NCBI GenBank assembly: GCA_030390025.1
Contig: CM059431.1
Location: 139,812,001 to 139,876,000, forward strand
DNA from: Squalus acanthias
Lineage: Eukaryota
Direction of reading: 5' to 3'
DNA: 64,000 nucleotides
Under the pieces are notes generated by a model. It was not told where the DNA came from, did not search any database, and worked only from the letters and a program-made list of their open reading frames with translations. Positions 5,641 to 64,000 of the stretch are shown here, one piece after another (positions within the stretch are counted from its first letter, which is position 1; each line of letters opens with the position of its first letter). The position numbers and the translations under genes were made by a program.

Positions 5641-8600
5641 ATGGTGAAGGTGTTATTTTACTGAACAGAGAAGGTGTATCTGATATAGTAAATTATGCAA
5701 GTGCTTTTGTACTGAACAGAGAAGATGTTTCTGCTTTGGTAGATTTTGAAGTTGCTATTTTACTGACGAGAGAAGATGTATCTGATCTAGTAGAATGTGT
5801 GGGTGTTATTGCACTGACCAGGGAAGATGTATCTGATTTAGTAGATGGTGAAGGTGTTATTGTACTGACCAGAGAAGATGTATCTGATTTAGTAGATGGT
5901 GAAGGCGATATTGTACTGACCAGTGAAGGTGTTTCTGATTTAGTAGATGGTGAAGGTGTTATTGTACTGACCAGAGATGATGTATCTTGTTAAGTAGATG
6001 TTGAGAGTGTTATTCTACTGAACAGATAAGATGTATCTGATTCAGTAGATGGTAAGGGTGTTATTGTACTGATCAGAGAAGCTGTATCTGAATTAGTAGA
6101 TGGTAAGGGTGTTATTGTACTGACCAGAGAAGATGTATCTGATTTATTGTTGGTGAGTGTGTTATTGTACTGACCAGAGAAGATGTATCTGATTTAGTAG
6201 ATGATGAAGGTGTTCTTGTACTAACCAGAGAAGATGTATCTGGTACATTGATGGTGAGGGTGTTATTGTACTGACAGAGAAGATGTATCTGATTTAGTAA
6301 ATGTTGAAGGTGCTATTGTACTAACCAGAGAAGATGTATCTGATTTACTAGATGGTGAGGTTGTTATTGTACTGACCAGAGAAGATGTTTCTGATTTAGT
6401 ATATGTTGAAGTTGCTATTGTACTGAACAGAGAAGATGTATCTGATTTAGTAGATGGTGAAGGTGTTATTGTACTGACCGGAGAAGTTGTATTTGATTTG
6501 GTAGAGGGTGAAGTTGTTATTGCACTGACCAGAGAAGCTGTATCTGATTCAGTAGATGATTTAGGTGTTATTGTACTGACCAGAGAAGCTGTATCTGTTT
6601 TAGTAGATGTTGAAGGTGCTATTGTACTGACCAGTGAAGGTGTATCTGAGTTAGTAGAAGGTGAAGGTGCTATTGTACTGACCAGAGAACATGTATCTGA
6701 TTTAGCAGATGATTTAGTTGTTATTGTACTTACCAGAGAAGCTGTATCTGATTTAGTAGATGGTGAAGGTGTTATTGTACTGACCAGTGAAGGTGTATCT
6801 GATTTAGTAGATGGTGAAGGTGCTATTGTACTGACCAGAGAAGATGTATCTGATTTAGTAGATGGTGAGGTTGTTATTGTGCTAAACAAAGAAGATGTAT
6901 CTGATCTAGTAGATGGTGAAGGTGTTATTGTACTGACCAGAGAAGATGTATCTGATTTAGTAGATGATTTAGGTGTTATTGTACTGACCAGAGAAGCTAC
7001 ATCTGATTTAGTAGGTGGTGAAGGTGTTATTATACTGACCAGAGACGGTGTTTCTGATATAGTAAATGATGCAGGTGCTTTAGTACTGAACAGAGAAGAT
7101 GTTTCTGCTTTTGTAGATTTTCAAGTTTTATTTTACTGACGAGAGAAGATGTATCTGATCTAGTAGAATGTGTGGGTGTTATTGTACTGACCAGAGAAGA
7201 TGTATCTGATTTAGTAGATGGTGAACGTGTTATTGTACTGACCAGAGAAGATGTATCTGATTTAGTAGATGGTGAACGTGTTATTGTACTGAACATAGAA
7301 GATTGATCTGATTAAGTAGATGATGAGACTGGTTTTGTACTGAGCAGAGAAGATGTATCTGATTTAGTAGATGGTGAGAGTTTTATTGTACTGACCAGAG
7401 AAGATGTATCTGATTTAGTAGATGGTAAGGATGTTATTGAACTGACCAGAGAAAATGTTTCTGATTTAGTATATGTTGACGGTGCTATTGTACTGAACAG
7501 AGAAGATGTATCTGATTTACTAAATGGTGAAGTTGTTATTGTACTGACCAGAGAAGATGTTTCTGATTTAGTATATGTTGAAGGTGTTATTGTACTGAAC
7601 AGAGAAGATGTATCTAATTTTGTAGATGGTGAAGCTGTTATTGCACTGACCAGAGAAAATGTATCTGATTTAGTAGATGGTGAGAGTGTTATTGTACTGA
7701 CCAGAGAACATGTTTCTGATTTAGTAGATGATTTAGGCGTTATTGTACTGACCAGAGAAGCTGTATCAGATTTAGTAGATGGTGAAGGTGTTATTATACT
7801 GCCCAGTGAAGGTGTATCTGATTTAGTAGATGGTGAAGGTGCTATTGTACTGACCAGAGAAGCTGTATCTGATTTAGTAGGTGGTGAAGGTGTTATTGTA
7901 CTGACCAGAGAAGGTGTTTCTGATACAGTAAATGATGCAGGTGCTTTTCTACTGAACAGAGAAGATGTTTCTGCTTTAGTAGATTTTGAAGTTGCTATTT
8001 TACTGACGAGAGAAGATGTATCTGATCTAGTAGAATGTGTATGTGTTATTGCACTAACCAGAGAAGATGTATCTGATTTAGTAGATGATGAAGGTGTTAT
8101 TGTACTGATCAGAGAAGTTGTATCTTATTTAGTAGATGGTGAGACTGTTATTGTACTGACCAGAGAAGATGTATCTGATTTAGTAGATGGTGAGACTGTT
8201 ATTGTACTGACCACAAAAGATGTATCTGATTTAGTAGATGGTAAGGGTGTTATAGTACTGACCAGAGAAGATGTATCTGATTTATTGATGGTGAGTGTGT
8301 TATTGTACTGACAGAGAAGATGTATCTTATTTAGTAGATGATGAAGGTGCTATTTTACTGACCAGAGAAGCTGTATCTGATTTAGTAGGTGTTGAAGGTG
8401 TTATTTTACTGACCAGAGAAGGTGTATCTGATATAGTAAATGATGCAGGTGCTTTTGTACTGAACAGAGAAGATGTTTCTGCTTTAGTAGATTTTGAAGT
8501 TGATATTTTACTGACGAGAGAAGATGTATCTGATCTAGTAGAATGTGTGGGTGTTATTGCACTAACCTGAGAAGATGTATCTGATTTAGTAGATGATGAA

Positions 8601-9696
8601 GGTGTTATTGTACTAACCAGAGAAGATGTATCTGATTTAGTAGATGGTGAAGATGTTATTGTACTGACCAGAGAAGATGTATCTGATTAAGTAGATGGTG
8701 AGAGTGTTATTGTACTGACCAGAGAAGATGTATCTGATTTAGTAGATGGTAAGGGTGTTATTGTACTAACCAGAGAAGATGTATCTGATTTAGTAGATGG
8801 TGAAGGTGTTATTGTACTGACCAGAGAAGATGTATCTGATTTAGTAGATGTTGAGAGTGTTATTGTACTGACCAGAGAAGATGTATCTGATTTAGTAGAT
8901 CGTAAGTGTGTTATTGTACTGACCAGAGAAGATGTATCTGATTTATTGATGGTGAGGGTGTTATTGTACTGACCAGAGAAGATGTATCTGATTTAGTAGA
9001 TGATGAAGGTGTTATTGTACTGACCAGAGAAGATGTATCTGATTTATTGATGGTGAGGGTGTTATTGTACAGACCAGAGAAGATGTATCTCATTTATTAG
9101 ATGATGAAGGTGTTATTTTAGTCACCAGAGAAGATGTATCTGATTAAGTAGATGATTGAGGTGTTATTGTACTGACCAGAGAAGATGTATCTGATTGAGT
9201 ATATGTTGAAGGTGCTATTGTACTAACCAGAGAAGATGTATCTGATTTAGTAGATGGTGAGGTTTTCATTGCACTGACCAGAGAAGATGTTTCTGATTTA
9301 GTATATGTTGAAGTTGCTATTGTACTGAACAGAGAAGACGTATCTGATTTAGTAGATGGTGAAGGTGTTATTGTACTGACCGGAGAAGTTGTATATGATT
9401 TGGTAGATGGTGAAGTTGTTATTGCACTGACCAGAGAAGATGTATCTGATTTAGTAGATGGTGAGAGTGTTATTGTAGTGACCAGAGAACATGTATCAGA
9501 TTTAGTAGAAGATTTAGGTGTTATTGTACTGACCAGAGAAGCTGTATCTGATTTAATAGATAGTGAAGGTGCTATTGTACTGACCAGAGAAGATGTATCT
9601 GATTTAGTAGATGGTGAAGGTGTTATTGTACTGATCAGAGAAGATGTATCTGATTTAGTAGATGGTGAAGGTGTTATTGTACTGACCCGAGAAGAT

Positions 9697-10006
9697 GGGC
9701 TGGATTTTGTCTTGGGGTCGGGTTGGGGTCGTGTAATCTGCATTTCGTGTTTCCCCCCCGACTCCAGATTCATGTGGATGAATGATGCAATTTTCACTTA
9801 ATTGGGCAATTGAGTTCCAGCATGTGGGAACCCATGCACCAATTAGTGGTTTCAGTGGGAAAGTCGCCTCTGATGATGTCATCATTGCAGGCTACCTGGT
9901 CTCAGAGAGGACCTGCCTGGCTTGCTTTTGATGTGAGTGGACCTGGATGCAAAATATTTGCGGGGGGCGGGGTTGCGGGGAGAAGAGAGAGAAAGAGAGA
10001 GAGAGG

Positions 10007-10068
<62 letters not shown>

Positions 10069-10345
10069 GAGAAAGAGAGATAGATTTTTTTGCATCCAAG
10101 TCCTCTCACAGCAAAGGTCAGGCAGTCTAATACTACTACTACCTTCATCACATCTCCATTGTAATAGTGGACCTGCAGCTGATAGTCAGCTATCCACTTG
10201 TGCTCCCGCCAGGTTTCACTGGAGTGTTTCACACCAGGCGTACTTCACGTCAGAAAAGGGTTAAACTAGCTAAAACGTTTCAAAATGGCATTACAGAGCC
10301 AATTTAGAGCTTGTTAAGGGCTTTAATGGCCTCTCCCGCCTCTTG
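9697..10345. mobile_element. Non-coding insertion in the 51-bp array, putative non-autonomous element starting GGGCTGGATTTT
   Basis: Unrelated sequence splits a repeat unit; similar termini occur at about 50403 and 51878 and, reversed, at about 43344 and 46227. Confidence 0.5.
9980..10081 (+). repeat. (GA)n microsatellite
   Basis: Directly visible. Confidence 0.95.
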
Positions 10346-10688
10346 GCCAGAGATGATGTATCTGATTTCGTAGATGGTGAGAGTGTTATTGTACTGAACA
10401 GAGAAGATGTATCTGATGTATTAGATGGTGAAGGTGCTGTTGTCCTGACCAGAGAAGATGTTTCTGATTTAGTAGATGGTGAAGTTGTTATTGTACTGAC
10501 CAGAGAAGGTGTATCTGATTTAGTTGATGGTGAAGGTGTTCTTGTACTGACCAGAGAAGATGTATCTGATTTACTAGATGGTGAAGGGCTGTTGTACTGA
10601 CCAGAGAAAATGTATCTGATTTATTAGATGGTGAAGGTGTTATTGTACTGACCTAAGAAGGCGCATCTGATTTAGTAGATTGTGAGAA

Positions 10689-11022: not shown

Positions 11023-14000
11023 CTACTGGCCTGGGGATGATGTATCCTGATTTAGAGATGATGAACGTGCTGTAGTACTGACCTGGAATGTTGTAGCCTG
11101 ATTAGTAGATGAGATTGGTACTATATTGAACTGGGATAGCGTAGCCTGATTAATAGATGATGATGGTGCTGTTTTGCTCTGGGATGGTGTAGTTTGATTT
11201 CTAGAGGATGATGGTGCTGTATTGACCTGGGATGGTGTTGTCTGATTTATAGATGATGGTGGTGCTGTATTTACCTGGGATGGTGTAATCTGATTTATAG
11301 ATGATGGTGGTGCTGTATTGACCTGGGATGATGTATTTTGATTTATAGATGATGATGGTGCTTTATTGACCTGGGATGGTGTAGTCTGATTTATAGATGA
11401 TGATGGTGCTGTGTTGACCTGGGATGGTGTAGTCTGATTTATAGATGATGGTGGTGCTGTATTGACCTGGGATGGTGTTATCTGATTTATAGATGATGGT
11501 GGTCCTGTATTGACCTGGGATGGTGTAGTCTGATTTATAGATGATGGTGGTGCTGTATTGACCTGGGATGGTGTTATCTGATTTATAGATGATGATGGTG
11601 CTGTATTGACCTGGGATGGTGTAGTCTGTTTTATAGATGATGATGTTGCTGTATTGACCTGGGATGGTGTAATCTGATTTATAGATGATGATGATGCTGT
11701 ATTGACCTGGGATGGTGTAGTCTGATTTATAGATGATGATGATGCTGTATTGACCTGGGATGGTGTAGTTTGATTTATAGATGATGATGGCACTGTATTG
11801 ACCTGGGATTGTGTAGTCTGATTTACAGATGATGATGGTGCTGTATTGACCTGGGATGGTGTAATCTGATTTATAGATGATGATGGCGCTGTATTGACCT
11901 GGGATGCTGTAATCTGATTTATAGATGATGATGGTGCTGTATTGACCTGGGATGGTGTAGTTTGATTTATAGATGATGATGGTGCTGTATTGACCTGGGA
12001 TGTTGTAGTCTGATTTATAGATGATGATGGTGCTGTATTGACCTGGGATGGTGTATTCTGATTTATAGACGATGATGGTGCTGTATTGACCTGGGATGGT
12101 GTAGTCTGATTTATAGACGATGATGGTGCTGTATTGACCTGGGATGGTGTAATCTGATTTATAGACGATGATGGTGCTGTATTGACCTGGGATGGTGTAG
12201 TCTGATTTATAGATGATGGTGCTGTATTGACCTGGGATGGTGTAATCTGATTTATAGACGATGATGGTGCTGTATTGACCTGGGATGGTGTAATCTGATT
12301 TATAGACGATGATGGTGCTGTATTGACTTGGGATGGTGTATTCTGATTTATAGACGATGATGGTGCTGTATTGACCTGGGATGGTGTAATCTGATTTATA
12401 GACGATGATGGTGCTGTATTGACCTGGGATGGTGTAGTCTGATTTATAGATGATGATGGTGCTGTGTTGACCTGGGTTGGTGTAGTCTGATTTATAGATG
12501 ATGATGGTGCTGTATTGACCTGGGATGGTGTAATCTGATTTATAGATGATGGTGGTGCTGTATTGACCTGGGATGGTGTTGTCTGATTTATAGATGATGG
12601 TGTTGCTGTATTGACCTGGGATGGTGTATTCTGATTTATAGATGATGATGGTGCTGTATTGACCTGGGATGGTGTAGTCTGATTTATAGATGATGGTGGT
12701 GCTGTACTGACCTGGGATGGGGAAGTCTGATTTATAGATGATGATGGTGCTGTATTGACCTGGGATGGGGAAGTCTGATTTATAGATGATGGTGGTGCTG
12801 TATTGACCTGGGATGGTGTAGTCTGATTTAGAGAGGATGATGTTGTTATATTGACCTGGGATGGAGTAGTCTGCTTTATAGATGATGAACGGACTCTAGC
12901 ACTGTCCTGGGATGTTTGAGACACCGCAGAAGTTAATGTCAACGCTGAATTTAAAGCCGGAAGCAGCATTGATCTCATAGTAACAACTGATGACTGTTGC
13001 ATGGATCTACCTGTCAGGGAGGGTGGAAACACATTGTTGTTTTCGGTCGATGATGGGGCCTTTGCCTTGTTGGAAGACGGAGGTACATTCGCACTGGACA
13101 AGCTGGGCACACTCGCACTGCTCACGATAGGCACAGTCTCACTGGTCACAATGGGCACACTCGCACTGCTCACGATAGGCACAGTCTCACTGGTCACGAT
13201 GGGCACACTCGCACTGCTCACGATAGGCACAATCTCACTGTGCAAAATGGACATCGTTTCAGTGGTCACGATGGGCACAGTCTCACTGGTCTCGATGGGC
13301 ACAGTCTCACTGGTCACGATGGGCACAGGATCAGTTTTCACGATGGGCACACTCGCACTCGTCACGATGGGCACAGTCTCAGTGGTCACGATGGGCACAA
13401 TCTCACTGGTCACGAAGGGGACAGTCTCACTGGTCACGATGGGGACAGTCTCAGTTGTCACGATGGGCACAGTCTCAGAGGTCACGATGGGCAGAGTCTC
13501 ACTGGTCACGATGCGGACAGTCTCAGTGGTCACGATGGGCAGAGTCTCACTGGTCACGATCGGGACAGTCTCAGTGGTCACGATGGGCACAGTCTCAGTG
13601 GTCACGATGGGCACAGTCTCAGTGGTCACGATGGGCACAGTCTCACTGTTCACGATGGGCACAGTCTCATTGGTCACGATGGGCACAGTCTCACTGGTCA
13701 CGATGGGCACAGTCACACTGTTCACGATGGGCACAGGCTCAGTGGTCACGATGGGCACAGTCTCACTGGTCACTATGGGCGCAGTCTCACTGGTCATGAA
13801 GGGCATAATCGCACTGATCCAAGAATCCATAATTGTGGATAAACTGAAAGCCAGTAAGGATGCTGTAGAAGTTTGAGGCTGTGCTGTTGAACTGGGGTGT
13901 GGACCTGCTCTATCAAGTGAAGAGGAGGTTTCCATTGATTCAGGGTGAATGGGCGATCGAGGCGCAGTTGAACGTCTCATGGACGTGGTTGTACGTTTGA

Positions 14001-14102
14001 TTTGGTGGTGCACAATCCTGGAGTTGATAGAAAGTGGATTCTGAGATTCGGTGAGCGTCGGCAGCCCATTGCTCGCGGAATGTGCTCTGGTCATAGTTGT
14101 CA
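11023..14102 (-). CDS. Exon 7: about 1026-aa Pro/Thr/Ser-rich mucin-like exon
   Basis: Acceptor ttgtttctcctacttcgcacag in phase 1, in frame with exon 6 (G+TG = Val). About 3.1 kb open frame containing 8-aa and 16-aa tandem repeats; the indels I noticed in the repeat are whole codons. Confidence 0.82.
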
Positions 14103-17100
14103 CTGTGCGAAGTAGGAGAAACAATGTCAATAGATTATTGGAGGCAACGGGCAGTAAAGTTGGACTTGGGCGAAGACGGAAAACTGGGAGAATCGCATTT
14201 GCAACCGTTTTGCAACACGTTTGATATTCGGTTCTGTTGGAATTAGTGGAATGAATATCGGGGTTTATAAAGAAAGAAACGGGCGACCGATGACATACCG
14301 CCTGTTTTGCGCCCCTGCCCTTGTCGAATTTCACCCACAATCTCTGGAGACACGCTCAAAATCAGCGCCTGTGAAAAGTGGAGCTCAGCAACAAACCAGC
14401 TCTGCTTTCCAGTTAGTGTGACCATTGTCATATGTGAAGATCCCTGAGGATAACTACATTGGTGAACCTCCCGCTGGGAGTGAGGCCAATCAGATGGCTC
14501 AGGGATTCCAATTATTTCACTTAGAAATCTGAGCAAACATAAAGGATTCAGGAAGGTCAAGGTGTGAATGGGTAAAATCCGCACTTCAGTGCTCCTGGCA
14601 AATACCCTGGAGAAAATATCATGAAACTGGACAGTGATTTAAAACTAACAGACGATGAATTGTTATGATCTGGAATGCACTGACTGAAAGTGTGGTGGAA
14701 GCAGATTCAATAGTCATTTCAAAGGGGATTTGGATAAATATTTATAGAGGAAAACTGCAGGGCTATGGGGAGAGGGCACGGCACTGGAACTAATTGGATT
14801 GCTCTTTCGAAGCGCCGACACAGGCACTATGGGCGGAATGGCCTCATTCTACACTCTATCCTTCCAGGATTCATTTCTATTGGCTATTTCTTCTGCATTT
14901 TGATTCCTAACCCCATGCGAGTAGCTTCCCATCTGTACAGCCTGGGAGCAGCGCATCCAGGGAATTCTGGAGCTGAGCTTTGCATTCTGGGAACGGAACC
15001 TGCCCGATTTTCCTTCCGTTATTTTCGTTGCAGCTTCTGTTCTGGCCGTGTAACCTTCCCGCCACATTCTCCCTTATTTACCCCGCCTGTGCATCTCTTT
15101 AAGCTGAGAGGCGTGGTGAAATTCGATATGGATGGGGAAGCGACACAGGAGCAATCGCTCTCACCAACCATTATAGACACGCCCGATATTCAGTTCTTTT
15201 GAAGTCAATGCGACCGAATATGGGGCGGAGCGGATATCGGGCGCCTGATGCGACACCGTCCATTTTGCGACCTCGCCAATGTCGAATTTCACCGTCCCCC
15301 ATACTTAGTCCGGTCTGTTGCTGTACCCTTACCTTTATATACAGGACAGGTTATCTTGTTCACGTCCAGGTAACTCTTTCCTCCCAGGGCTATCGCCACC
15401 TGTGACATTGTTGTAAGGTTTTCCCAGTTTCCCCGAGAAATTTTATGCACCATTTTCTGCACAGATTTGGTGCAATTATAGACACGTGAGGTGAACACGT
15501 TTATGTTTTCGGCCAGGGCCTGGAGTGTAAAGAAAGTAACAATAATTTTAATATTTAATGTTAGTGATCCGGAGATCTTTCAATCGGAGCACATATGAAT
15601 TCTGTTTGAAAGCACTGTAAGATAAAGTGGGGGTCAATGGAAATAAAAATCGGGAGATATTTACAAGGGCTGCGGATTCGCCATCACACATGTTACACCA
15701 TCGCATGAAGTCAAAATCGACCCCCAGGTGCGTTCTGATCGGGTACAGTTTAGATTAGATTAGTGTGGAGACACCACACTTAGAGTACTGTGAATAGATC
15801 TGCTCTGGTTAGACCACACTTAGAGTAGCGTGCACAGCTCTGTTCTCCATATTACTAAAAAGATATAAAGGCACATCTTGAAGATGCAATAAAACATTTG
15901 CAAGGATGATACCAGAATTCAGTGGTTATAACAATTAGGAATGTCTGATCAGGAAAAGAGAAGACTGAGAGGTGAACTAAAAGACGTCTTCAAAATGATG
16001 AATGGATTTGATGAGGTTTCGGAGAGAAGATGTCTCCAGTTGCGGGGTGAGTCCAAAACTAGGGGCCATAAATATAAGATCGCCACTCATAAACCCAACA
16101 ACGAATTTAGGAGAAACTTCTTAACTAGAGAGTGGATAGAAGTTGTAACTCGCTCTCACAAGGAGTAGCAGAGGAGGTGAATAGCAAAGATTGATTTAAG
16201 GGGAATCTACATGAAGGAGAAAGGAATAGAAGTATATGGTGATAGGGTCAGTAGGGCCGAAGGAGCCTCGTGTGGCCCACAAACACACGAAAGGCCGGTT
16301 TCTGTACTGAAAATTCCATGTAAAGATTGTCCTCTTTGAATTTGAAGTCAACTAGTTTCTCAATATAACAAAACCATCCTGTTTACATTGTTTATCCCCA
16401 CTTCAGTGTATTGATTTAATGAGCATTGAGTCATTCGCTTTCTTTTGTGGTAACTTTATCTTTGAGCGATGATGTACAATGGCCAATCTTGAATTAACCA
16501 GCCATTGTATACCACGCCCGATTTTCATTTGCATTGAATCAATGGAAGGTAAAATCGGGCGCCAGTAAATTGGATAGCAATTGGATATTACCCATTTTAC
16601 ACCTTCACCAAAAGTTAAAATCACCCGTTCATCAAAAGTTAAAATCACCCCTTAACACTCTTCAAACAATGCCCTCCGCTCCTGCCGAGTTCTATCCCAT
16701 GAATGGTATCGAGGTGTCTCCGAATCTTTCAACATGCTGTACTTTGCATTGCTTCACACTGAACGTCATCTGAACACGTTAGGCACCGATACACCAATAT
16801 CTCAATATCGTTTATAAGCTCTAATTGTTTACAGTCTATCGCTTAATGTGGTGTGAAGAAGCTATTATTTACTAATTGCGCTGAGTTCGAATTAAACTAG
16901 AAACCTATTTTCTAATTTCACATCACCATACCTGCATGGCCAGCCCTGTACAGCACAAGCTCCCAATAGGCCCGTCCTCTCTCACTTCACTTAGAATCCG
17001 CCTCATTATCCACATTATAGCCTTTGCGATGTCAAGCCGAGATCTGCCTCTTGGTTGTTGTGAGTGTATCAGACACCTCAGACTAAGTGCCGCGGTGGCC

Positions 17101-20100
17101 ATTGTATCTACAACACATGAAACAGTTACCAACGGTTCATGGAGTAAATTTGATAGGACGGCCGGTAACGAGAGGACACAGATGTATGATATTGGCAAAA
17201 GAATCTGAGGGGAGATGGGGAGTCATTTTTGCTTTTTTACACAGCGAGCTGTTATAATCTGGAATGCACTGCCTGAACGCGTGATGGAAGCAGATTCAAT
17301 GGTGACTTTGAAAAGGGAATTTGATATATACTTGATGAGGATAAAAATACAGGGCTATGGCTTATGGGGAAAGAGAATGGTGAGTGGGATTAATTGGTGA
17401 GCTATTTCAAAGAGCCACCACAGGTACGATGGGCCGACTGGCCTCCTTCTGTAAGTTTGGCTGATTCTATGATATCCGAAGCCGACAAGGCAAGAGCGAT
17501 CCGAGAACCCATTGATGAAGAGACGCTTCCCAAATTACCACTCGTTTTACTCTCAGCCGGTGTCCAATGGACTCCCAGCACAAGTTTACCAATCACTGAT
17601 TGCAGCAACACGGCCTTGTCCCGACTACAGAATTGTGCAAGTCTTAGGTTGGAATTGAATTGGGAGTAATGGGGACAAGACTGAAACGATTAAATGCTTC
17701 TTGTAATAATACATGCAAGGGGTGAAATTGCACTTGGGCGGGAACGCAATACAGGCGGAATCGCATTTTACGACCGTCATGGGACCAGGCCCGATATTTA
17801 CTTCTTTTGGCCGTTTTGCGGCCCCGCCCAGGTCCAATTTCAGCGCCGACTCTTCACCAATCGTAACTTGTGAACTCGGGTAACCGCCTTCAAAACTCCA
17901 TCAAATGGATATTATTGAAACTGTAAAATGAAACGTCTTGACTGCTCAGACACACCTACTGTTAATTCTTTCCCGTGTTGAGCGATCTTCCTGAGATGAG
18001 CCCGGATAAAATTATGAATGAGAAAGCCCGGGACAGGTTCCTCCTCCTGACACAGCGCCAGGATCGCCAGGCTGGCTTCAGTAAAGGCCTTGAGAGAATA
18101 TCCAGCGTTTTCTGCAAATACAGTGACAGCCTCCAATATTAGTGATGTGCTACACATCTGAATAACGGGAACTACAGATGTGAAAATTCCTCCCTAGTTC
18201 GTTCCCGATCCTCTCTGTGTGACAGAAATCAGGCCAAGGATTTAAATGAATGAAATAGAATTGGTGTAGAATTTACAGCACAGAAGGAGGCTCTTCGGCC
18301 CAACAGGTCTAATTCTGCTCCACCTGAGCCTCCTCCTACCTTACTCACTCGAGTTGCTTACCCGAGGGAGGTATTCCTTTCTCCCTCATGAAATTTTCTA
18401 ACTTCGCCTTAAATACATTAATACTGTTAGGTTCAACTTCTTCTGGTAGCAAATTCCACATTCTCGCCACTCTTGGGGTAAAGAGGATTCTCCTGAATCC
18501 CCCATTATAATTAGTAGTGACTCTACAGCGGACTAATGCTCTCCTGCATGGCTTTCCAGTCCATATGACCAATCATAGAAACATAGAAAATAGGTACAGG
18601 AGTAGACCATTCGGTCCTTCGAGCCTGCACCGCCATTCAATGCGTTCATGGCTGAACATGCTACCTCAGTACCCCATTCCTGCTTTCTCGCCATACCCCT
18701 TGATCCCCCTAGTTGTGATTGTTACATCTAAATCCCTTTTGAATATATTTAGCGAACTGGCCTCAACAACCTTCTGTGGAAGAGAATTCCATAGATTCAC
18801 CACTCTCTGGGTGAAGAAGTTCCTCCTCAGCTCAGTCTTAAATGGCTTCCCCTTAATCCTTAGACTGTGACCCCTGGTTCTAGTTTTCCCTAACATTGGG
18901 AACATTCTGCCCGCATCTAATTTGTCTAAACCAGTCAGGATTTTAAATGTCTCTATAAGATCGTCCCTCATTCTTCTGAACTCCAGAGGATACAAGTTCA
19001 GTTGACCCAATCTTTCTTGATATGTCAGACCGGCCATCCCAGGAATCAATCTAGTGAACCTTCGCTGCACTCCCTCAATAGCAAGAATGTCCTTCCTTAA
19101 GTTAGGAGACCAAAACTGCGCACAATACTCCAGGTGTGGCCTCACCAAGGCCCTGTACAACTGCAGCATCACCTCCCTACTCCTGTACTCAAATCCCCTT
19201 ACTATGAAGGCCATCATTCCGTTTGCTTTCTTGACTGCCTGCTGCACTTGCATTCCCACCTTCAGTGATGGATGTACCATGACGCCCAGGTCTCGTTGCA
19301 CCTCCCCTTTCCCTAATCTGCCACCATTCAGGTAATAGTCCGCCTCTCTATCTTTACCACCAAAGTGGATAACCTCACATTTATCCACATTGTACTTCAT
19401 CTGCCATACATTTGCCCATTCACCCAACCTGTCCAAGTCACTCTGTAGCCTCCTAGCATCCTCCTCATTGTTCACACTGCCTCCCAATTTAGTGTCATCC
19501 GCAAATTTGGAGATATTACATTTAATCCCTTCGTCCAAATCATTAATATATAATGTAAACAGCTGGGGTCCCAGCACCGAACCCTGCGGTACCCCGCTGG
19601 TCACTGCCTGCCATTCTGAAAAGTACCCATTTACTCCTACTCTTTGTTTCCTGTGTGCCAACCAGTTCTCAATCCACGTCAACACATTACCCCCAATCCC
19701 ATGTGCTTTAACTTTGCTCACCAATCTCTTGTGTGGGACCTTGTCGAAGGCCTTCTGAAAGTCCAAATACACCACATCTACTGGTTCCCCCCTGTCCACC
19801 CTCTTGGAAACATCCTCAAAAAATTCCAGAAGATTTGTCAAGCATGATTTCCCTTTCACAAATCCATGCTGACTTGGACCTATCATGTCGCCACTTTCCA
19901 AATGGTCTGTTATGACATCTTTAATAATTGCTTCCATCATTTTACCCAAGACCGATGTCAGGCTGACCGGTCTATAATTCCCTGCTTTCTCCCTCCCTCC
20001 TTTTTAAAAAAGATGTCATCATTGATGTCCAGCTAAATTCTACTATGAGAATTATCACCGGTACGCTTTTAATGACACCAACATCTTGGCTGCCCGTCCT

Positions 20101-23100
20101 TGCAAACATCACACCAACACACCTACGCCACGATTATGCAGTGTCCATAGAAAACAACCGCTACACAAGCAAAGACATGCCAATCCAGGCGGACTTGAAC
20201 AACCTACTACCAAACCATCCCTAATCTAGAAGGCCATCTTGGAGCATCGCCAAAGCCCTTCGGTGATCTCCTTAATGACCGATGGCTAAATAATTGGAAG
20301 AACTGTGACATACGGAATGGATTCCTTATAGAGGACCCCACAGTACAACCTGAAGGATCAAACCTTCCTTGCTACCAGTGAACAATCATCAACCGCCTCA
20401 TAACTGGTCATGGTAGATGCTGACATCTTCTCCATTGATGGAAGATTAAAGAATCCCCATCATGCGACTGTGAAGCTCCCGAACAGACCCTGGAGCACAT
20501 CACTGAGCACTGGAAATTCTCAGGCAGCGTACATAAGAACCTAATTAATAGGAGCAGGAGCTTGACACTTCGAACATACTCCACAATTCAATAAGATCAT
20601 GGCTGATCTTCTACCTCATCTCCACTTTCCTGCACTATCCCCATATCCCTAGTTTCATTTAATTTTCAAAAATCTATCGATCTCTGTCTTGAATGTACTC
20701 AACGACTGAGCCTCCACAGCCCTCTTAGGTAGAGAATTCCAAAGATTCACCACCCTCTGAGTGAAGAAATGTCTCCTCATCTCAGTCCTAAATGGCGGAC
20801 CTCTTATTTTGAGACTGTGACCCCTGGTTCTAGACTCCCCAGCCAGGGGTAACATCCTCCCTACATCTACCCAGTCAATCTATGTAAGAATGTTGTATGT
20901 TTCAATGAGATCACCTCTCATTCTTCTAAACTCTAGAGAATATAGGCCGAGTCTACTCAATCTTTTCTCATAGGACAATCCCCCCCATCCCAGGAACCAG
21001 TCTGGTGAATCTTCGTTGCAAGAAATTCACGCTGTTTCACTGGAGTCTTTGGCTTTGATATCTGATTTAGATATTGAGATTTGACTTGCTTTGCTACTAA
21101 CATACAAAAGAAGAAGAAGTACTGAATACCTTATATTATAGTCTCCTCTTCAAGTGGAAGCATCTGTTCTACTTCAACCCTGTAGAAACACTTCATTATT
21201 TTAAAAACCTCTATTAGCTCACCTCTCAATCATCTCTTTTCCAGATGAAAGAGCCCCAGCCGGTTCAGCCTTTCTTGATAAATAACATAGATAATAATAG
21301 ATGAATAAATAAATGCAACAAGGGTTTTATTTCACGGATATCATCATAAATCATTGCCTTTATAAACCAGGAGTCAGCGTTCCAATTCCCTTTAGGCCTG
21401 GTGTCAATTGGTTCTTTTAAAAAGTGTTGGATAAATATTTGCCCTTTAATGGGTTTGGAGATAATGGGAATAGATACAAACTGTGAGAGTAATTATATTG
21501 GTGTTTACAGGGACAGATATGAACTGAGAAGGCAGTGGGATTGGAGGTTATGGGGAGCCGCCGAATGTTATGGGAATAGAACCGGAAATTGTTGCGATTA
21601 AAGCAGACTGAGGTGAGAATGAGGCTGGAGGTTATGGCGGGAGCTACAGATTGGGTATGATTGGAGGTTATAGGGACAGGTACAGACTGAGATGTGAGTA
21701 TGATTGGATGTTATGGGGACAGGTAGAGACTGAGATATGAGTGTGATTGGAGGTTATGGAGTGAGGTACAGCCTGAGATGTGAGTGTGATTGGAGGTTAT
21801 GGGGACAGGTACAGACTGAGATGTTCCTGTGATTGGTGGTTTTCAGCTTGTGTTTGCTGAAAGATGCCTCTCAATCTCTATGCAAATAACATGCCTAAAG
21901 CATGAGTCCACACTTACCTTTAGAAGATGTTATCCTAGGTATTTGGTGCAATTCACTGTACAGCCTCTCACGGAGCACCTCCACCAAATTCACCTCCTTG
22001 TTTCCTGCCGATATCTTGGCGGAGTTCCGACAAGAGGATCTGAAGGCTAAGATGTAGAAAACCAACTGGTCTATGGGGAAGTGTTCACCTGGCGGCAGAG
22101 GAACAAACGAGATTCAGTTTGTTCTGACTGGGTCCATCAATAACTAACTGGTTAGTGATTATAAATTCCTCTTCTACACTCTGAAGACTTGTATTAATAT
22201 TCTTCCTTATTCTAACTCTCAAAAACGATTCAAAGTGCTTCAAGTGTAATAAATTATTTGGAAGTGCAGACATCCTTGTTATATCGACCAATTCGGGAGC
22301 CATTTTGTGGACAGCAATATCCCACAAATAGCAATGAAGTGAATAGCCAGGGAACCAGTTTTAAATTCTTAACCGGCGACACGGTAAATAGATTAACTGC
22401 TAATGTATCTCATTAGTACTTGTGGCATCTTGTGTCCAATTGGTTGTCGAGTTTGTCTATGAAAGATAAATGGCTGCATTTCATTGGCTGTGAAGCAAAG
22501 GCACTACAGAAATGTAAGTTTCTCCCCCTTCACTCTCCTCTCTCTTTAAACTACTTTGGGTGTTAGCTGGGGAATAAGTGTTGTCCAAGACCCCGGCAGC
22601 ACTCTCCCTTCTTGTTCCAATAAAGCCGTGGCATCTTCAAATTCCACAAGAAAAGATTCAGGGGATAATTTTAGATTTAAACGATGTTGTAAAATAACCG
22701 ACACCAAAATGGCCTCCGATTATAGATCCCGCCCGATGTTCACCTCCATTGGAAAAGAAAATCAAGCGTGGTGTAAAAGGGCGTCTGCTGCAATTTAGAG
22801 CAAGGGGCAGGGTAATGATTTCTGATTTCAAAACAATGAGAGGACAAGAAGTAAAACCTACGTGCAGGATGGGCGATATAGGGTTTAGGTGGAAGAACAG
22901 AGGAATGTTTAGAGCTACGAAATAATTTCCATCATAGTATCATGACCAAAGCTGCTGCAATAAATGACAGCTCGGCCCATTCACCTGAGGGGAGAATTCC
23001 AGCTAGAAGTCTCCCTCCCTCCCTCTCTTCATCTTCCTCAGTATGTGTCTGTTTCTCTCTTTCTCCGTCTCACTGTTATTCTTTCTCAAACACACACACA

Positions 23101-25383
23101 TACACATACACACAGAAACGTACAGACTCGGATATATATGCACCTACATACACATATAAACACATACAGACAAGTATACACACAGAGAAACACATATGCA
23201 TACAGAAGCACAGACACACAGAAACGCAGAGACATACACACACACAATCGCAAATAATCCCACAGAAAGATACACACAAACACACGCAAACATATACAGA
23301 AACTTCAATGGCACATTGCTGCAAATTAATCCCTGGGATCTTGATTCAAATGGTTGAGAAATTGTGTAATGTAATAAAGTGAACTGCACTGGGGAAAAGA
23401 AGGAGAATCGCATGAGGTGTGTTAACTTTCAACATTGGCTCTCACAAAATAGGCGCTATCGACAGTCATATTAGCTGCTATTTTTAAATTAACCTATGTA
23501 TTTTAAATGGACGAGGACCTCTATTCGGAACATTGGAATTGCTGTGGCGGGTAAAGACCAAGGTGCATCTAGTTCTTCTTCTACCATCCATGTAGTCTCA
23601 TGATACAATGACAATGAGATTGTTGTCTAATCATAGTAATCAGTCTCTATAAATCAGTCTACATCAGACACAGACATGAGGCGAGGAATACCCGGTGCTG
23701 GAGAGCTTTGTGAACCATAGGTCCAAAATCACCTGTTCCTCTCAAGCACGCTACACTGACCATGTGTAACATCTCAAATTACACATATACTCTATCCCAA
23801 ATGTTATGTTCTGATATCAAATAGAGCAATATGACATGAACGGGCTACAAGTTGGTTCATTTGTATCATGGGGCTATTCTTAGGTTCCAATTTCCTTCAT
23901 TAACAATAGTTTGCCAAACACTTAACCTGTCAGTAAAAATAAAGATTTAATCCAGATACATCCACATTAACTAATAGATTAAAGTTTACCTGCCCCCACC
24001 TTTCTAACAACCGCCTCACTCAGCCTTCGGAGAATGTCTTGTTCACTCTGTAGATCATGCTCACTCCCCAGGCGTAGGGCAATGAAAGCCCCGGGGTCTG
24101 GCTCCACGGACAGATCACTCGGTTTCCTCTCTATACTACGGATAAGTGATTTCTGCTGATTATCTGGAGCCGCTGGAATCCACAACCGAATTATTAATCC
24201 ACTCGCGTGTAAGGAACATTAAGATAGCAGTAACACTTAAAGATATTGAGGATAATCAGAAGGCGCATGTGGCCGGTGAACACAACATATGCACATACAG
24301 TAAGAACATGTATTGTAGTAAACAGTAAGGACGATAGTAGCAGACTTCAGGAGGACACAGACAGACTGGTGCAATGGGCAGTCACATCGTAGATGACATT
24401 CAATGCAGAGAAATCTGAAATGGTGCATTTTGAATGAAGAATGAGGAGAGTTAATATAAACCAAATAGTACAATTTTATTAGGGGCGCAGGAAGAGAGAG
24501 ACCTCGGGTTCACGTACACTAATCTGTGACGGTGGCAGGACTTACTGACAAATCTTTAAAAAAAACATGACGGGATACGTGGCTTTCCAAATAGATGCAC
24601 AGAGTAGAAAAGCAAAGAATTTGCGGCAAAGGTTTATTAATCATTAGTTATGCTTCTGTTAGTGCATTGTGACCAATCCTGAGCAACACACTTTAGTCAA
24701 AGCCTTGGAGAGGGTGCAGAGGAGATTTACCGGAATGGTAGCAGGGATGAGGGACTTCAGTTATGTGGAGAGACTGATGAAGCTGGGATTGTTCTCCTTA
24801 GCGTAGAAAAGGTTAAAGGGAGATTTAATAGAGATGATCAAAATCATGAAGAGTTCTGATAGAGTAAATAAGAAGAAAGTGCTTCCACTGGCAGGAGATT
24901 CAGTGTCAGAGGACACACACTTAAAGTAACTGGCAAAAGTACCAACGGGGGTGGGGGGGGGGGGGGGGGAGGTGGAAATAGGAGTTTTAAAAAAAATCAT
25001 CAATGTTGCTGCGATCTGGAATGCATTGCCTCAAATGGTGATAGAAACATATTCAATACTAACTTTCAAAATGGGAATAGGATGAGTATATGAAGAGGAA
25101 ACGGAGCAGGGATTTGGGGAAGAGCAGGGTGGGTGGGACTAATTACTCTTTCAGAGAGCAGGCAGAGGTACGGTGGGCCGAATGGGCTCCTTCTGCACTT
25201 AAGGTTCCATGATTCTATAATACTTTGATTCTAAATTACGATAAAAACTCAGCTAAAGGATAAACATCAGGTTTAGGTTAAACACTGGGAACCAAACAAC
25301 AAATCGCACTTACTGTATTGTTGGGATGTTGCCGGGTACGAGGCACTGAAGAGCAGGAGTGTGAGGGTCATCACCGGGGGCAT
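11023..25383 (-). CDS. Spliced gene: secreted cobalamin-binding-protein family (transcobalamin/intrinsic factor/haptocorrin-like) alpha domain fused to a mucin-like PTS domain. Exons 25383-25314, 24172-23990, 22088-21918, 18111-17956, 17107-16932, 15519-15333, 14102-11023; about 1340 aa
   Basis: All six introns are GT-AG with matching phases (1,1,1,1,0,1) and no internal stops. Family motifs occur in canonical order: PDPGAFIALRL, DQLVFYILAFRSSC, ASLAILALC, TVDTMATAALSLRC, DGPIGSLCCTGLAMQAL, YNC...SQVAIALGGKSYLDVNKITC. Confidence 0.88.
11040..12890 (-). repeat. 48-bp coding tandem repeat (TPSQVNTAPSSSINQT), about 38 units
   Basis: Plus-strand unit gatgatgatggtgctgtattgacctgggatggtgtagtctgatttata. 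Confidence 0.95.
13105..13800 (-). repeat. 24-bp coding tandem repeat (ETVPIVTS/T), about 29 units
   Basis: Plus-strand unit tggtcacgatgggcacagtctcac. Confidence 0.95.
14660..14850 (+). mobile_element. CR1-type 3' tail fragment
   Basis: tggaatgcactg...gtggtggaagcagattcaatag...aatggcct tail; a similar copy lies at 17225-17470. Confidence 0.6.
15115..15293. mobile_element. Short element with terminal inverted repeats (MITE-like)
   Basis: Perfect 12-bp TIR GGTGAAATTCGA...TCGAATTTCACC; relatives at 17721-17844 and a half copy ending at 14335. Confidence 0.6.
15333..15519 (-). CDS. Exon 6 of transcobalamin-like gene (ALAENINVFTSRVYNCTKSVQKMVHKISRGNWENLTTMSQVAIALGGKSYLDVNKITCPVYK)
   Basis: tttctttacactccag acceptor, AAG|gtaagg donor; corresponds to the WNC...G-F-NP...AQ-LP-L--KTYLD...C segment ending the alpha domain. 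Confidence 0.92.
15745..16320 (+). mobile_element. Decayed CR1 3' fragment
   Basis: RPHLEY, KRRLRGELKDVFK, KTRGHKYKI, FRRNFLT remnants. Confidence 0.75.
16932..17107 (-). CDS. Exon 5 of transcobalamin-like gene (DTMATAALSLRCLIHSQ...ILSEVREDGPIGSLCCTGLAMQ)
   Basis: gttgtag acceptor, CAG|gtatgg donor; degenerate family signature VDTxAxAxLAxxC and DGxxGxxxSTGLAMQ. Confidence 0.92.
17956..18111 (-). CDS. Exon 4 of transcobalamin-like gene (NAGYSLKAFTEASLAILALCQEEEP...KELTV)
   Basis: tatttgcag acceptor, TAG|gtgtgt donor; SLxxLALC motif; split Asp codon of V-D-T. Confidence 0.88.
18575..20010 (-). mobile_element. 5'-truncated CR1 LINE with open RT/C-terminal frame (18666-19949), in intron 3
   Basis: QHGFVKGKSC, YLDFQKAFDKVPH, FADD, RNFFTQRVVNLWNSLP; tail near 18575. 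Confidence 0.95.
20015..21119 (+). mobile_element. Ingi/Vingi-like (I-group) LINE 3' fragment, split by a CR1 insertion (parts about 20015-20530 and 21021-21119)
   Basis: INRLITGHGRC...WKIKESPSCDCEAPEQTLEHITEH zinc-knuckle region; resumes EIHAV...DLDIEI* with a (GAA)n tail. Confidence 0.6.
20532..21020 (-). mobile_element. CR1 3' fragment
   Basis: ESRTRGHSLKIRG..FRTEMRRHFFTQRVVNLWNSLP. Confidence 0.9.
21495..21835 (+). repeat. 43-bp minisatellite, about 8 units, in intron 3
   Basis: Unit gattggaggttatggggacaggtacagactgagatgtgagtgt; 43-bp period counted from 21661 to 21790. Confidence 0.85.
21918..22088 (-). CDS. Exon 3 of transcobalamin-like gene (EHFPIDQLVFYILAFRSSCRNSAKISAGNKEVNLVEVLRERLYSELHQIPRITSSK)
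   Basis: Not in the ORF track. Pyrimidine-rich acceptor (ttgttcctctgccgccag), AAG|gtaagt donor, 171 bp, phase 1-1; matches the GQLALYxLALxxxC motif. Confidence 0.9.
23088..23300 (+). repeat. CA-rich low-complexity tract
   Basis: Directly visible. Confidence 0.85.
23990..24172 (-). CDS. Exon 2 of transcobalamin-like gene (APDNQQKSLIRS...PDPGAFIALRLGSEHDLQSEQDILRRL...)
   Basis: ttccag acceptor, G|gtaaac donor; resembles the family NPSIxIAxxL segment. Confidence 0.85.
24320..25215 (+). mobile_element. Highly decayed CR1 fragment in intron 1
   Basis: ALERVQRRFTGM, RLKGDLIEMIKIM and tail remnants. Confidence 0.75.
25314..25383 (-). CDS. Exon 1 (signal peptide MPPVMTLTLLLFSASYPATSQQY)
   Basis: ATG with A at -3, short hydrophobic core, consensus donor A|gtaagt, phase 1 matching exon 2. 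Confidence 0.8.
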
Positions 25384-48709: not shown

Positions 48710-48937
48710 CTTCAATTGGAACAGATGGAAAATGGTTCTCAGTATTAGTTGTATTGACATAAAAACAACTTCTCAATACCATTTCACCATTCAGTAAAAT
48801 GATGCAAGATTTAATTGGCAGTTTCGATAGAGATGCATATAGAAATTAAACCTCAGTTAGTGGCTGAGAACTGTTTCAAATACTCACTTGATTCTAATAT
48901 TTACTGGGAAATATGGAATAGAATATCAGTGGGATAA

Positions 48938-63802: not shown

Positions 63803-64000
63803 TATGGGGTTTCACAATGCATCAGGATCCTGCAAGGTGTGTATGGGGTTTCACAGTGTATAAGGATCCTGCCAGATGTGAATGGGGTTTCACAGTGTAT
63901 CAGGCCACTGCCAGGTGTGTATGGCGTTTCTCAGTGAATCAGATATCTTCCAGTTGTGATAGGGGTTTCACATTGTATCAGTATCCTGCCAGGTGTGCAT

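Follow-up and report, generated by a model that had tools for sequence, protein, structure and literature searches.

The window, by which we mean the whole 64,000-nucleotide stretch of Squalus acanthias DNA analysed here, carries on its minus strand a gene of seven predicted exons, which would combine the alpha domain of the vitamin B12 carriers with a long repeat tail. Taken as a whole, the locus is probably a member of a multi-copy, elasmobranch-specific branch of the transcobalamin/intrinsic factor/haptocorrin family. We propose that this branch kept only the N-terminal alpha6/alpha6-barrel domain, and that a single large terminal exon, encoding Cys-free Ser/Thr/Pro/Val-rich repeats, would be joined at the conserved intron after which other family members have the linker and the beta domain. 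The product would likely be secreted and heavily glycosylated, a mucin-like protein of the non-gel-forming kind whose sole folded head is the alpha barrel.

The gene model runs from 25383 to 11023 and predicts a protein of 1340 aa, made up of a hydrophobic N-terminus, a 314-aa cobalamin-binder alpha domain (PF01122) and a 1026-aa repeat tail. The only stop in the spliced CDS (4023 nt) is the terminal one; no frameshift was found over the 1340 codons, all introns are GT-AG (12/12 canonical splice dinucleotides) and the phases are compatible. The first-pass annotation had described six small exons forming a signal peptide and alpha domain, and every coordinate was confirmed, as were their canonical AG/GT sites, their donor phases (1,1,1,1,0,1) and the hydrophobic N-terminus. 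The last exon lies in a stop-to-stop ORF of 1110 aa (11023..14355, minus strand). The features of the locus are as follows.

25314..25383, minus strand: exon 1 (70 nt), ATG at 25383, donor phase 1; hydrophobic N-terminus, probable signal peptide (by eye)
23990..24172, minus strand: exon 2, alpha domain, PF01122 profile positions 21-80
21918..22088, minus strand: exon 3, alpha domain, PF01122 profile positions 90-128
18669..20003, minus strand: LINE reverse-transcriptase ORF in intron 3 (RVT_1, E 1.3e-34), outside the gene product
17956..18111, minus strand: exon 4, alpha domain, PF01122 profile positions 124-181; KAFTE at the family's TNYYQ position
16932..17107, minus strand: exon 5, alpha domain, PF01122 profile positions 176-241 (41.6 bits)
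15333..15519, minus strand: exon 6, end of the alpha domain, PF01122 profile positions 238-300 (42.1 bits), phase-1 donor
11023..14102, minus strand: predicted exon 7, Ser/Thr/Pro/Val-rich tail, 1026 codons, stop TAG at 11023-11025
13085..13816, minus strand: 24-bp (8-aa, SETVPIVT-type) tandem array in exon 7, 30.5 copies, 83% matches
11034..12888, minus strand: 48-bp (16-aa, PSQVNTAPSSSINQTT-type) tandem array in exon 7, 38.6 copies, 91% matches
2411..10685, minus strand: degenerate 51-bp (17-aa, STKSDTSSLVSTITPSP-type) arrays downstream of the stop, interrupted by LINE and simple repeats, frame not intact

We rejected the downstream 51-bp arrays as a further coding exon; they contain at least six frame changes, at least nine in-frame stops (9723 to 5644) and a LINE insertion. 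At the other end of the gene, the predicted protein begins with a run of ~10 hydrophobic residues (read by eye), and secretion of the product is probable if this putative signal peptide is functional.

The family assignment of the head was made by scoring the window protein against PF01122 exon by exon (cut-off 25 bits). Five of the six small exons matched collinearly over profile positions 21-300 of 317 (E 0.0024 to 7e-11); exons 5 and 6 each exceeded the cut-off individually, and exons 2-4 scored 17.4-20.4 bits each. This is the profile match that the first-pass annotation had predicted, and the Narcine orthologue scored 128.9 bits against the same profile. Of 23 columns conserved in the family, 22 are retained in the window protein, and intron 6 lies at the family's usual alpha/linker boundary. 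The fold was predicted on the Mustelus orthologue, whose alpha domain is 67% identical and which stands in for the window protein (pLDDT 85, pTM 0.84, 13 helices). In a Foldseek search with this model, the 15 matches listed, out of 16 at E≤0.001, were all IF, HC or TC chains, and the isolated alpha-domain chain 2pmv_B matched at TM 0.81. The best PDB sequence match of the Mustelus protein was human intrinsic factor (E 1.2e-21). As modelled on the orthologue, the head is an alpha6/alpha6 barrel.

The cysteines and the corrin-contact motif of the head have a mixed record. All four invariant or near-invariant alpha-domain Cys columns are kept. The N-terminal Cys, which in rat TC is disulfide-bonded (Cys21-Cys268, PMC11107200), is replaced by Tyr at position 23 in the window copy and in the nearly identical copy C; the Cys is present in 9 of 11 full-length copy models, and its partner Cys (in NCT) is still present in the window protein. 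The window copy alone also has a Ser-Ser to Cys-Cys change, which adds two Cys at positions 245-246. The alpha-domain motif that contacts the corrin, TNYYQ (PMC4350170), reads KAFTE in the window copy and copy D, KTFNE in Mustelus and KVLTE in Narcine. Clade-wide, TNYYQ has become K-x-[FL]-[TN]-E, and the SQxxPxL stretch has Ile in place of its near-invariant Pro; the Heptranchias and Leucoraja carriers retain TNYYQ at the same position. Human intrinsic factor, which aligns there with SAFYG, departs from the motif too, so that loss of the motif is not by itself proof against binding. Cobalamin loading of the known carriers starts at the beta domain, and the resulting complex is then closed by the alpha domain (PMC11107200). 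Given this order of binding and the loss of TNYYQ throughout the clade, the head is unlikely to bind B12 tightly or with high affinity on its own.

Related genes were found in other elasmobranchs. Over the alpha domain, the window protein shares 67% identity with the Mustelus model (P0001), 57% with a Narcine model (P0002) and 31-35% with four other family members. In a quick ML tree (SH-aLRT support only), the window gene and the Mustelus and Narcine models formed a clade with SH-aLRT 100 and a long stem (1.01), on the TCN1/GIF side and not the TCN2 side. The Narcine bancroftii protein P0002 (993 aa) is named 'mucin-2-like', a name that is not borne out, since PF01122 (at 72-374) was its only Pfam match; the 619 residues that follow belong to no Pfam family, have 26% S+T and 11% P, and contain no Cys. 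A hypothetical protein of Chiloscyllium punctatum (chiPu_0021066, P0050, 442 aa) combines alpha fragments with a similar tail. The window tail aligns weakly with the Narcine and Chiloscyllium tails (composition-adjusted E 5e-5 and 4e-5). Queried with the Mustelus protein, a near-length search gave no match besides the query. We conclude that this is a real gene family, whose architecture is new to the known family it belongs to. The first-pass annotation had not recognised the architecture as a described one. The literature searched contained no account of it, yet it already exists as automatic database models in Narcine and Chiloscyllium that have passed without remark.

The three vertebrate B12 carriers are textbook examples of proteins with two domains, and the position of intron 6 raises the possibility that the window gene is an ordinary carrier of this kind, with its linker and beta exons lying beyond the Ser/Thr/Pro-rich region or outside the window. 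Beta domains are short and divergent, so that searches can miss them. The PF14478 (DUF4430) profile gave no match anywhere in the S. acanthias genome, even at the canonical genes; the model is therefore insensitive and its null result uninformative. Other searches argue against a hidden beta domain. In a tblastn search with 96 family proteins, no beta-type match was obtained in the 64-kb window, including the 15 kb downstream. A shark beta-domain query did find matches, but only on contigs C474 and C1824, beside the canonical genes, and none on C7; no beta domain was found near any of the 14 copies of the gene described below. Moreover, the Narcine model ends in its tail, without a beta domain. 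We regard a concealed two-domain carrier as highly improbable. The absence of a beta domain beyond the tail indicates an architecture of alpha domain plus tail, and not the one put forward in the first-pass annotation, in which the alpha-beta linker had been stretched into a mucin stalk. On the sequence evidence, the tail replaces linker and beta domain together.

The joining of tail to head depends on the splice between exons 6 and 7. The phase-1 donor after 15333 continues at 14102 in the reading frame of the long ORF, as had been claimed from the first inspection, and the spliced frame is closed by one terminal stop. Downstream of exon 6 there are 376 AG sites, of which 11 are preceded by a strong pyrimidine tract. 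The tract of 14102 is the joint best, and, besides an AG within the ORF, this is the only site that leads into a long reading frame. If one of six other good acceptors upstream of 14102 were used instead, the tail would have just 7-21 codons. The first Met of the tail ORF lies two residues past the acceptor and is not followed by a hydrophobic start of its own, so that the ORF needs an upstream signal-peptide exon. Across 13 copies, the intron-6 donor GT was kept in 10 and the acceptor AG in 11, and the two copies without the acceptor were also without the donor. Of four sequencing runs compared with the locus, none of them recorded as RNA, one contained 0.07 of the sampled words and the others almost none; their matches to the contig fell mainly on the LINE and other repeats, no read joined 15333 to 14102, and this result has no bearing on expression. 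By splice-site quality and frame, the predicted in-frame join of exon 6 to the long exon is the best available gene model, and it is rather likely, in our view, that the mRNA unites head and tail.

The predicted tail (1025-1026 aa) has 38% S+T, 12% P and 18% Val+Ile, 22 N-X-S/T sequons and no cysteine. A unique segment of 98 aa is followed by the 8-aa array (~30 units), a second unique segment of 60 aa and the 16-aa array (~39 units). Pfam searches of the tail found no family, and thus no VWD/C8/TIL/CK, SEA or transmembrane modules. Its composition suggests that it is likely densely O-glycosylated; with 18% Val+Ile beside 38% S+T (Val+Ile 18-33% across the tails of the copies), it is less mucin-like than classical PTS domains.

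At the nucleotide level, coding-type constraint was not seen in the tail. The unique start of exon 7 is 94.9% conserved among paralogues, which equals intron 6 (94.9%), with exon 6 at 97.3%; its pN/pS is 0.83, a value also covered by the intron controls (0.45-1.39). Among units of the 16-aa array (anchored units, 29 of 32 used), we counted 16 synonymous and 41 non-synonymous differences and no stop, where neutral change would be expected to give 27/69/4% (p 0.48), and the 8-aa array gave 16 synonymous and 46 non-synonymous differences. Codon-position bias was absent from the unit differences of both arrays. Both arrays look neutral, and this neutrality neither supports nor excludes coding by the PTS region. 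The tail ORFs of the window copy, copy D and copy G (1025, 1882 and 1384 codons) all come to a stop no more than ~45 codons from where the 16-aa array ends. The tail of copy F runs for 1365 codons before a frameshift, and those of copies A, E and C are open for only 783, 408 and 312 codons, so that 3 of the 7 copies with an intact head reach the common end and 4 are cut short. The tail evolves at the intron rate, and together with the broken tails in several copies this is the weak point of the model.

These observations could also be explained if the gene encoded a secreted alpha-only protein with a short tail, exon 6 being spliced to another acceptor or running on into a short terminal exon and the open Ser/Thr/Pro-rich frame being a non-coding minisatellite or 3' UTR. 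The Mustelus model (330 aa) stops two residues after exon 6, annotated models in Heptranchias, Hypanus, Hemitrygon, Cetorhinus and Pristiophorus (301-422 aa) consist of the alpha domain and a short tail, and the six acceptors upstream of 14102 would provide tails of this kind. However, only one of six frames is open in the tail (0 stops, versus 33-120 in the others), and it stays open across four different segments, two unique and two arrayed. It is also the very frame that the phase-1 donor sets at the best acceptor. The shared end point of three copies and the long tails that follow the same domain in the Narcine and Chiloscyllium models speak against this reading as well. A short-tailed product therefore appears to us rather unlikely, and we retain the alpha-plus-tail model.

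The S. acanthias genome contains 14 loci of the alpha-plus-tail type. All six alpha exons are open, with canonical splice sites, at 7 of them, and the other 7 are visibly damaged or partial. The exon 1 stretch occurs in 13 copies at 91-100% identity, and exon 2 has an open frame in 12 family copies. An apparent TGA in exon 5 of some copies was discarded as a defect; it sits in the intron just beyond the donor, and the exon is open there. The pooled pN/pS of the alpha domain was 0.37 (8 open-frame copies), compared with 1.40 and 1.67 in the wrong frames, which shows that the domain is under purifying selection.

It might be that the window copy itself is dead or decaying, as part of a segmental-duplication family that was amplified recently, and that the function resides in other copies. 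It has lost the N-terminal Cys in common with copy C only and carries the unique Cys-Cys change, half of the loci are damaged, and its four differences from copy C are all non-synonymous (0 synonymous). By our own arithmetic from site proportions, however, this 4:0 split is not significant (~0.35), and the lineage of the window copy and copy C has a pN/pS of 0.19-0.36 against the other copies. Neither do the uninterrupted 1340 codons and the complete set of canonical splice dinucleotides fit a decayed gene. We consider it distinctly unlikely that the window copy is dead.

Compared with intrinsic factor, haptocorrin (TCN1) and transcobalamin (TCN2), which consist of PF01122 and PF14478, the window gene shares the alpha6/alpha6 barrel but has no linker and beta domain, a tail of ~1000 aa and ~14 copies instead of one. 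To our knowledge, single-domain relatives of the B12 carriers are known solely for the beta half, in teleosts. These transcobalamin-like proteins (TCNL, or DUF4430-only 'Tcn-like') have one domain and keep the signal peptide, as described in PMC7918649 and PMC4350170, and on that description the two halves of a carrier can exist as separate genes. Whereas the teleost proteins, so described, keep the C-terminal domain that binds the ligand first, the window gene has the N-terminal barrel and a repeat tail. Little skate Tcn3 is a highly divergent, elasmobranch-specific family member with alpha and beta domains (Lopes-Marques et al. 2014, PMC4350170); judged by this published description, it resembles the window gene in divergence and elasmobranch restriction but differs in having a beta domain. 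The large tandem-repeat exon, probable signal peptide and Cys-free tail are also features of secreted non-gel-forming mucin-like glycoproteins, from which the window protein differs in being unusually rich in Val and Ile and in having a vitamin-carrier domain as its folded head. The modules of gel-forming and membrane mucins (VWD/C8/TIL/CK in the MUC2 type, SEA/transmembrane in the MUC1 type) are those missing from its tail. The same layout is found in Narcine P0002 and Chiloscyllium P0050, where a PF01122 alpha domain likewise leads into a long low-complexity tail and no beta domain is present; the type and length of the tail repeats differ, and both are unreviewed predictions.

The head might dock in trans onto a ligand-loaded partner, or it may have taken on another binding role, and the tail would hold it in mucus or a surface layer. 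A more specific version, which we offer as speculation and think unlikely, is a multi-copy, mucus-tethered capture module, in which the barrel would close as a 'lid' in trans on the corrinoid of a separate beta carrier, much as cleaved halves of intrinsic factor come together again around cobalamin, or on a new small ligand, and so trap a microbial metabolite. If true, this would amount to a surface-layer trap that withholds or concentrates such a metabolite and to a mirror image of the teleost beta-only carriers.

An alpha-only lineage under purifying selection, with a mucin-like tail and ~14 loci, would demonstrate a use of the barrel beyond clamping B12. The family would offer a natural system in which the alpha domain can be studied by itself, whether it docks to a partner, recognises a receptor or binds a new ligand, and it is relevant to corrinoid handling at the mucosal surfaces of cartilaginous fish. 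So far the automatic names 'mucin-2-like' and 'intrinsic factor-like' have hidden a single gene family.

Joining the candidate exons by script after reading their DNA gave a minus-strand gene of seven exons, 25383 to 11023, with AG...GT at every internal boundary and intron phases 1,1,1,1,0,1. The joined coding sequence is 4023 nt long with a sole, terminal stop, and its 1340-aa product divides into 314 aa through exon 6 and 1026 aa from exon 7, which lies within a minus-strand frame of 1110 aa running from stop to stop (11023..14355). When the exon frames were searched singly against Pfam, five matched the cobalamin-binding family PF01122 collinearly; exon 1 and the tail (exon 7) matched no family.

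Exons of the window gene, with matches to the PF01122 profile
25383-25314, minus strand: exon 1, from candidate exon DNA and scripted joining
24172-23990, minus strand: exon 2, profile 21-80 of 317, E 0.0016, alone below the 25-bit cut-off
22088-21918, minus strand: exon 3, profile 90-128 of 317, E 0.00027, alone below the cut-off
18111-17956, minus strand: exon 4, profile 124-181 of 317, E 0.0024, alone below the cut-off
17107-16932, minus strand: exon 5, profile 176-241 of 317, E 9.9e-11, alone above the cut-off
15519-15333, minus strand: exon 6, profile 238-300 of 317, E 7e-11, alone above the cut-off
14102-11023, minus strand: exon 7, long tail frame

Intron 3 contains a 445-aa frame for a reverse transcriptase (Pfam, E 1.3e-34). 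The first-pass annotation was thus correct in its exon coordinates, phases and setting among LINEs. Its cobalamin-binding alpha domain is borne out by the collinear exon matches, and its phase-1 join of exon 6 to the acceptor at 14102 stays in frame with the long ORF. We conclude that the window gene and its family are real.

The same annotation had placed the tail in an expanded linker connecting the alpha domain with the beta domain. A tblastn search of the window with 96 family proteins gave 149 HSPs, all on the minus strand at exons 2-6 except two weak low-complexity matches to the tail; the beta-domain part of the queries (DUF4430/PF14478) gave no HSP in the 64-kb window. Zero matches were returned by a PF14478 profile search of the whole genome (3.7 Gb), and since nothing matched anywhere, that model is insensitive here. 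A 90-aa beta-domain sequence of a shark carrier, searched against the whole genome, matched three exons, all on contigs C474 and C1824 and adjoining canonical alpha exons; no beta-type exons were found on C7, the contig that carries the window (139812001-139876000). Because the beta domain was found neither in the window nor on C7, the tail replaces linker and beta domain instead of being inserted between alpha and beta, and the expanded linker is not supported. C474 holds two alpha exon-6 matches and two beta-exon matches, C1824 several alpha sets and one beta-exon match. Several canonical-looking family genes also occur in the genome (C474, C1824, C12, C13), and the whole family, beyond the alpha-only branch, seems to have expanded in Squalus acanthias.

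The tail consists of 98 unique residues, an 8-aa array, about 60 unique residues and a 16-aa array. Its composition is 38% S+T, 12% P and 18% V+I, with 22 N-X-S/T sequons and no Cys.

Tandem arrays in exon 7 (Tandem Repeats Finder)
13085-13816, minus strand: 24-bp array, 30.5 copies
11034-12888, minus strand: 48-bp array, 38.6 copies

One reading frame of the tail contains no stop, against 33-120 in the other five, and it is the sole frame open through all four parts. The first Met lies 2 residues past the acceptor and no hydrophobic start follows, so a secreted product of the tail frame would require an upstream exon. Of the 376 AG dinucleotides in the 6.3 kb past exon 6, 11 combined a pyrimidine at -3 with an upstream tract of 70% pyrimidines or more. 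Among these, 14102 was joint highest (0.83), in phase 1 and followed by a 1026-codon frame; six further good acceptors upstream of it would give tails of 7-21 codons. Frame openness, the missing start and acceptor strength are as expected of a terminal coding exon to which exon 6 is spliced. Substitutions among the repeat units are neutral-looking in both arrays: the 16-aa array (from 29 of its 32 anchored units) showed 16 synonymous, 41 non-synonymous and 0 stop differences against an expected 27/69/4% (p 0.48; probability of zero stop changes by chance, 0.09), and the 8-aa array 16 synonymous and 46 non-synonymous. The coding status of the tail therefore rests on frame openness, splice fit, a shared ORF end and cross-species models, and not on substitution patterns.

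Models in other species were found with exon 6 as query, which matched (1 of 7 candidates), at 76% identity, a 330-aa model from Mustelus asterias annotated as 'cobalamin binding intrinsic factor-like' and ending 2 residues beyond the exon-6 sequence. The Mustelus model in turn matched 3 of 5111 longer candidates, the best being a 993-aa Narcine bancroftii 'mucin-2-like' model with PF01122 at residues 72-374 and no other Pfam family; its remaining 619 residues have 26% S+T, 11% P, 17% V+I and no Cys. Among 1.84 billion representatives scanned exhaustively with HMMER, 86 were family members, and two of these exceeded 600 aa: the 993-aa Narcine model and a sturgeon record of 961 aa, which its source marks as unverified or contaminated. 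In a hypothetical protein of Chiloscyllium punctatum (442 aa), alpha fragments occur together with a similar tail rich in Pro, Val and Thr. The 8-aa-repeat region aligned weakly with the tails of Narcine (30% over 284 columns, E 5e-5) and Chiloscyllium (E 4e-5), both composition-adjusted and, since the sequences are repeats, only suggestive. Models of 301-422 aa from Heptranchias, Hypanus, Hemitrygon, Cetorhinus and Pristiophorus also terminate just past the alpha domain.

The window alpha domain is 67% identical to that of Mustelus, 57% to that of Narcine and 31-35% to four other family members compared. A quick IQ-TREE run (SH-aLRT support only) included 31 of 118 proteins, namely the named ones and two unnamed long-branch members, and three Squalus genome models, with Narcine trimmed to residues 61-400. 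The window copy, copies D and G (paralogous loci described below), Mustelus and Narcine formed one clade (SH-aLRT 100; stem 1.01 changes per column). Its sister (support 95) comprised the alpha-only Pristiophorus and Hypanus models, and both lay outside the TCN2 group.

Against solved structures, the Mustelus orthologue matched human intrinsic factor (E 1.2e-21), haptocorrin (2.6e-17) and also transcobalamins. Its AlphaFold model, built from a 36-sequence alignment, had a mean pLDDT of 85, a pTM of 0.84 and 13 helices within residues 41-320. Foldseek counted 16 matches at E<=0.001; each of the 15 listed was an intrinsic factor, haptocorrin or transcobalamin chain, among them the isolated alpha-domain chain 2pmv_B (TM 0.81, target-normalised). 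The window protein retains 22 of 23 invariant or near-invariant family columns, the exception being an Ile for the Pro of the SQxxPxL stretch, common to the whole window/Mustelus/Narcine clade. The alpha-domain motif TNYYQ, which hydrogen-bonds to the corrin ring (PMC4350170), is KAFTE in the window copy and copy D, KTFNE in Mustelus and KVLTE in Narcine; because human intrinsic factor also departs from it (SAFYG in the alignment to solved structures), this loss is a pointer and not proof. Residue 23 is Tyr in the window copy and copy C and Cys in 9 of 11 full-length copy models, and residues 245-246 are Cys-Cys in the window copy alone and Ser-Ser in the others. In rat transcobalamin, PMC11107200 describes a disulfide of the N-terminal Cys21 with Cys268.

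Genome-wide, PF01122 gave 46 exon matches, many of them exon-5/exon-6 pairs on C7 at 137.85-143.73 Mb and on unplaced contigs; exon 2 was present in 12 copies and exon 1 in 13. We compared 27 genomic stretches and mapped the window exon boundaries to another 13 loci, A to M.

State of the alpha exons and intron 6 in the 14 loci
A, C, D, E, F, G and window (7 of 14): six alpha exons all open, canonical splice sites
B: alpha exons open, intron-6 donor GG
H: 3' part of exon 2 gone
J: 2-bp insertion in exon 3
L: 10 bp deleted from exon 4 and 1 bp inserted into exon 6
I and K: without exons 1-3 in the DNA examined, intron-6 donor and acceptor both broken
M: exons 1-3 only

Across the eight open-frame copies (H, J and L excluded), the pooled head had pS 0.052 and pN 0.019, a ratio of 0.37 compared with 1.40 and 1.67 in two wrong frames; between the window/C lineage and the other copies it was 0.19-0.36. 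These ratios indicate purifying selection on the head since the copies diverged, and the head is functional in evolutionary terms. Copy C (C7:140166400-140183900), about 346 kb from the window gene, is almost its twin. With 25-bp flanks included, exons 1 and 3 of the two match at 100%; exon 2 gives the same translation, and identity is 98-99% over the remaining alpha exons. In copy C a Lys codon of the middle unique segment has become a stop, which cuts the tail short at codon 312.

A homologous exon-7 start lay about 1.2 kb downstream of exon 6 in 12 of 12 exon-6-bearing copies examined. Mean pairwise nucleotide identity was 97.3% in exon 6, 94.9% in intron 6 and 94.9% in the unique start of exon 7. 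The pN/pS of that start (0.83) fell inside the range of intron controls (0.45-1.39), and exon 6 alone, with few changes, gave 1.03. Of 13 copies, 10 keep the intron-6 donor GT and 11 the acceptor AG.

Number of codons open past the acceptor, by copy
D 1882; G 1384; F 1365; H 1072; window 1025; A 783; K 581; E 408; C 312; J 309; B 280; I 60; L 4

The ORFs of the window copy, D and G end at most about 45 codons apart, at the end of the 16-aa array; tail breaks in some copies may be assembly errors in repeats. An alpha-plus-tail product is our best model, a fairly likely prediction.

According to PMC11107200, cobalamin is bound first by the beta domain, the alpha domain then closes over that complex, and association of the two requires cobalamin. 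Cleaved intrinsic factor halves together still bind cyanocobalamin, in a complex that the receptor recognises (PMC6257451), and teleost proteins with the C-terminal domain only are described in PMC7918649 and PMC4350170. Taken together, these reports make it unlikely that an alpha-only protein would hold B12 tightly by itself. The alpha head could close in trans onto a loaded beta-type partner; alternatively, it could have gained another binding role. The tail would hold the head extended and hydrated at a surface.

A full-text literature search for elasmobranch carriers, with most subscription journals outside its coverage, returned Lopes-Marques et al. 2014 only (PMC4350170). Its main text describes little skate Tcn1/Gif, Tcn2 and a divergent, stomach-enriched Tcn3, all two-domain, and makes no mention of a mucin-type fusion; by that description Tcn3, unlike the alpha-only head here, has two domains. 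Within an established family, the gene represents both a new architecture and a lineage-specific expansion, currently visible solely as inconsistently named automatic models.

Just past the stop, 51-bp arrays (2411-2851, 5641-9697 and 10347-10685, minus strand) read on the gene strand as a 17-aa Ser/Thr/Pro repeat; frame changes and stops are numerous in them, and a LINE interrupts them at about 2850-5400. Copy G carries this sequence after its tail, which makes it part of the duplicated unit; the arrays may once have belonged to the tail and since decayed. Two segments, 14388-14871 (intron 6) and 24552-25035 (intron 1), had very high contig depth in the four sequencing runs compared and are probably short interspersed repeats common to related species. 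A 41-bp satellite, its period not a multiple of three, begins about 1.3 kb upstream of exon 1 (26679-32688, about 150 copies; 33792-34356, about 14 copies). A 39-bp satellite of about 200 copies (52622-53024 and 55455-63997) has several open plus-strand frames and seems to be non-coding satellite, not a gene. About 21 kb upstream of exon 1, a 647-aa open frame (46905-48845, minus strand) with NACHT (E 7.4e-36), NOD2 winged-helix and NLRC4 HD2 domains is the central exon of an NLR-type innate-immunity gene.
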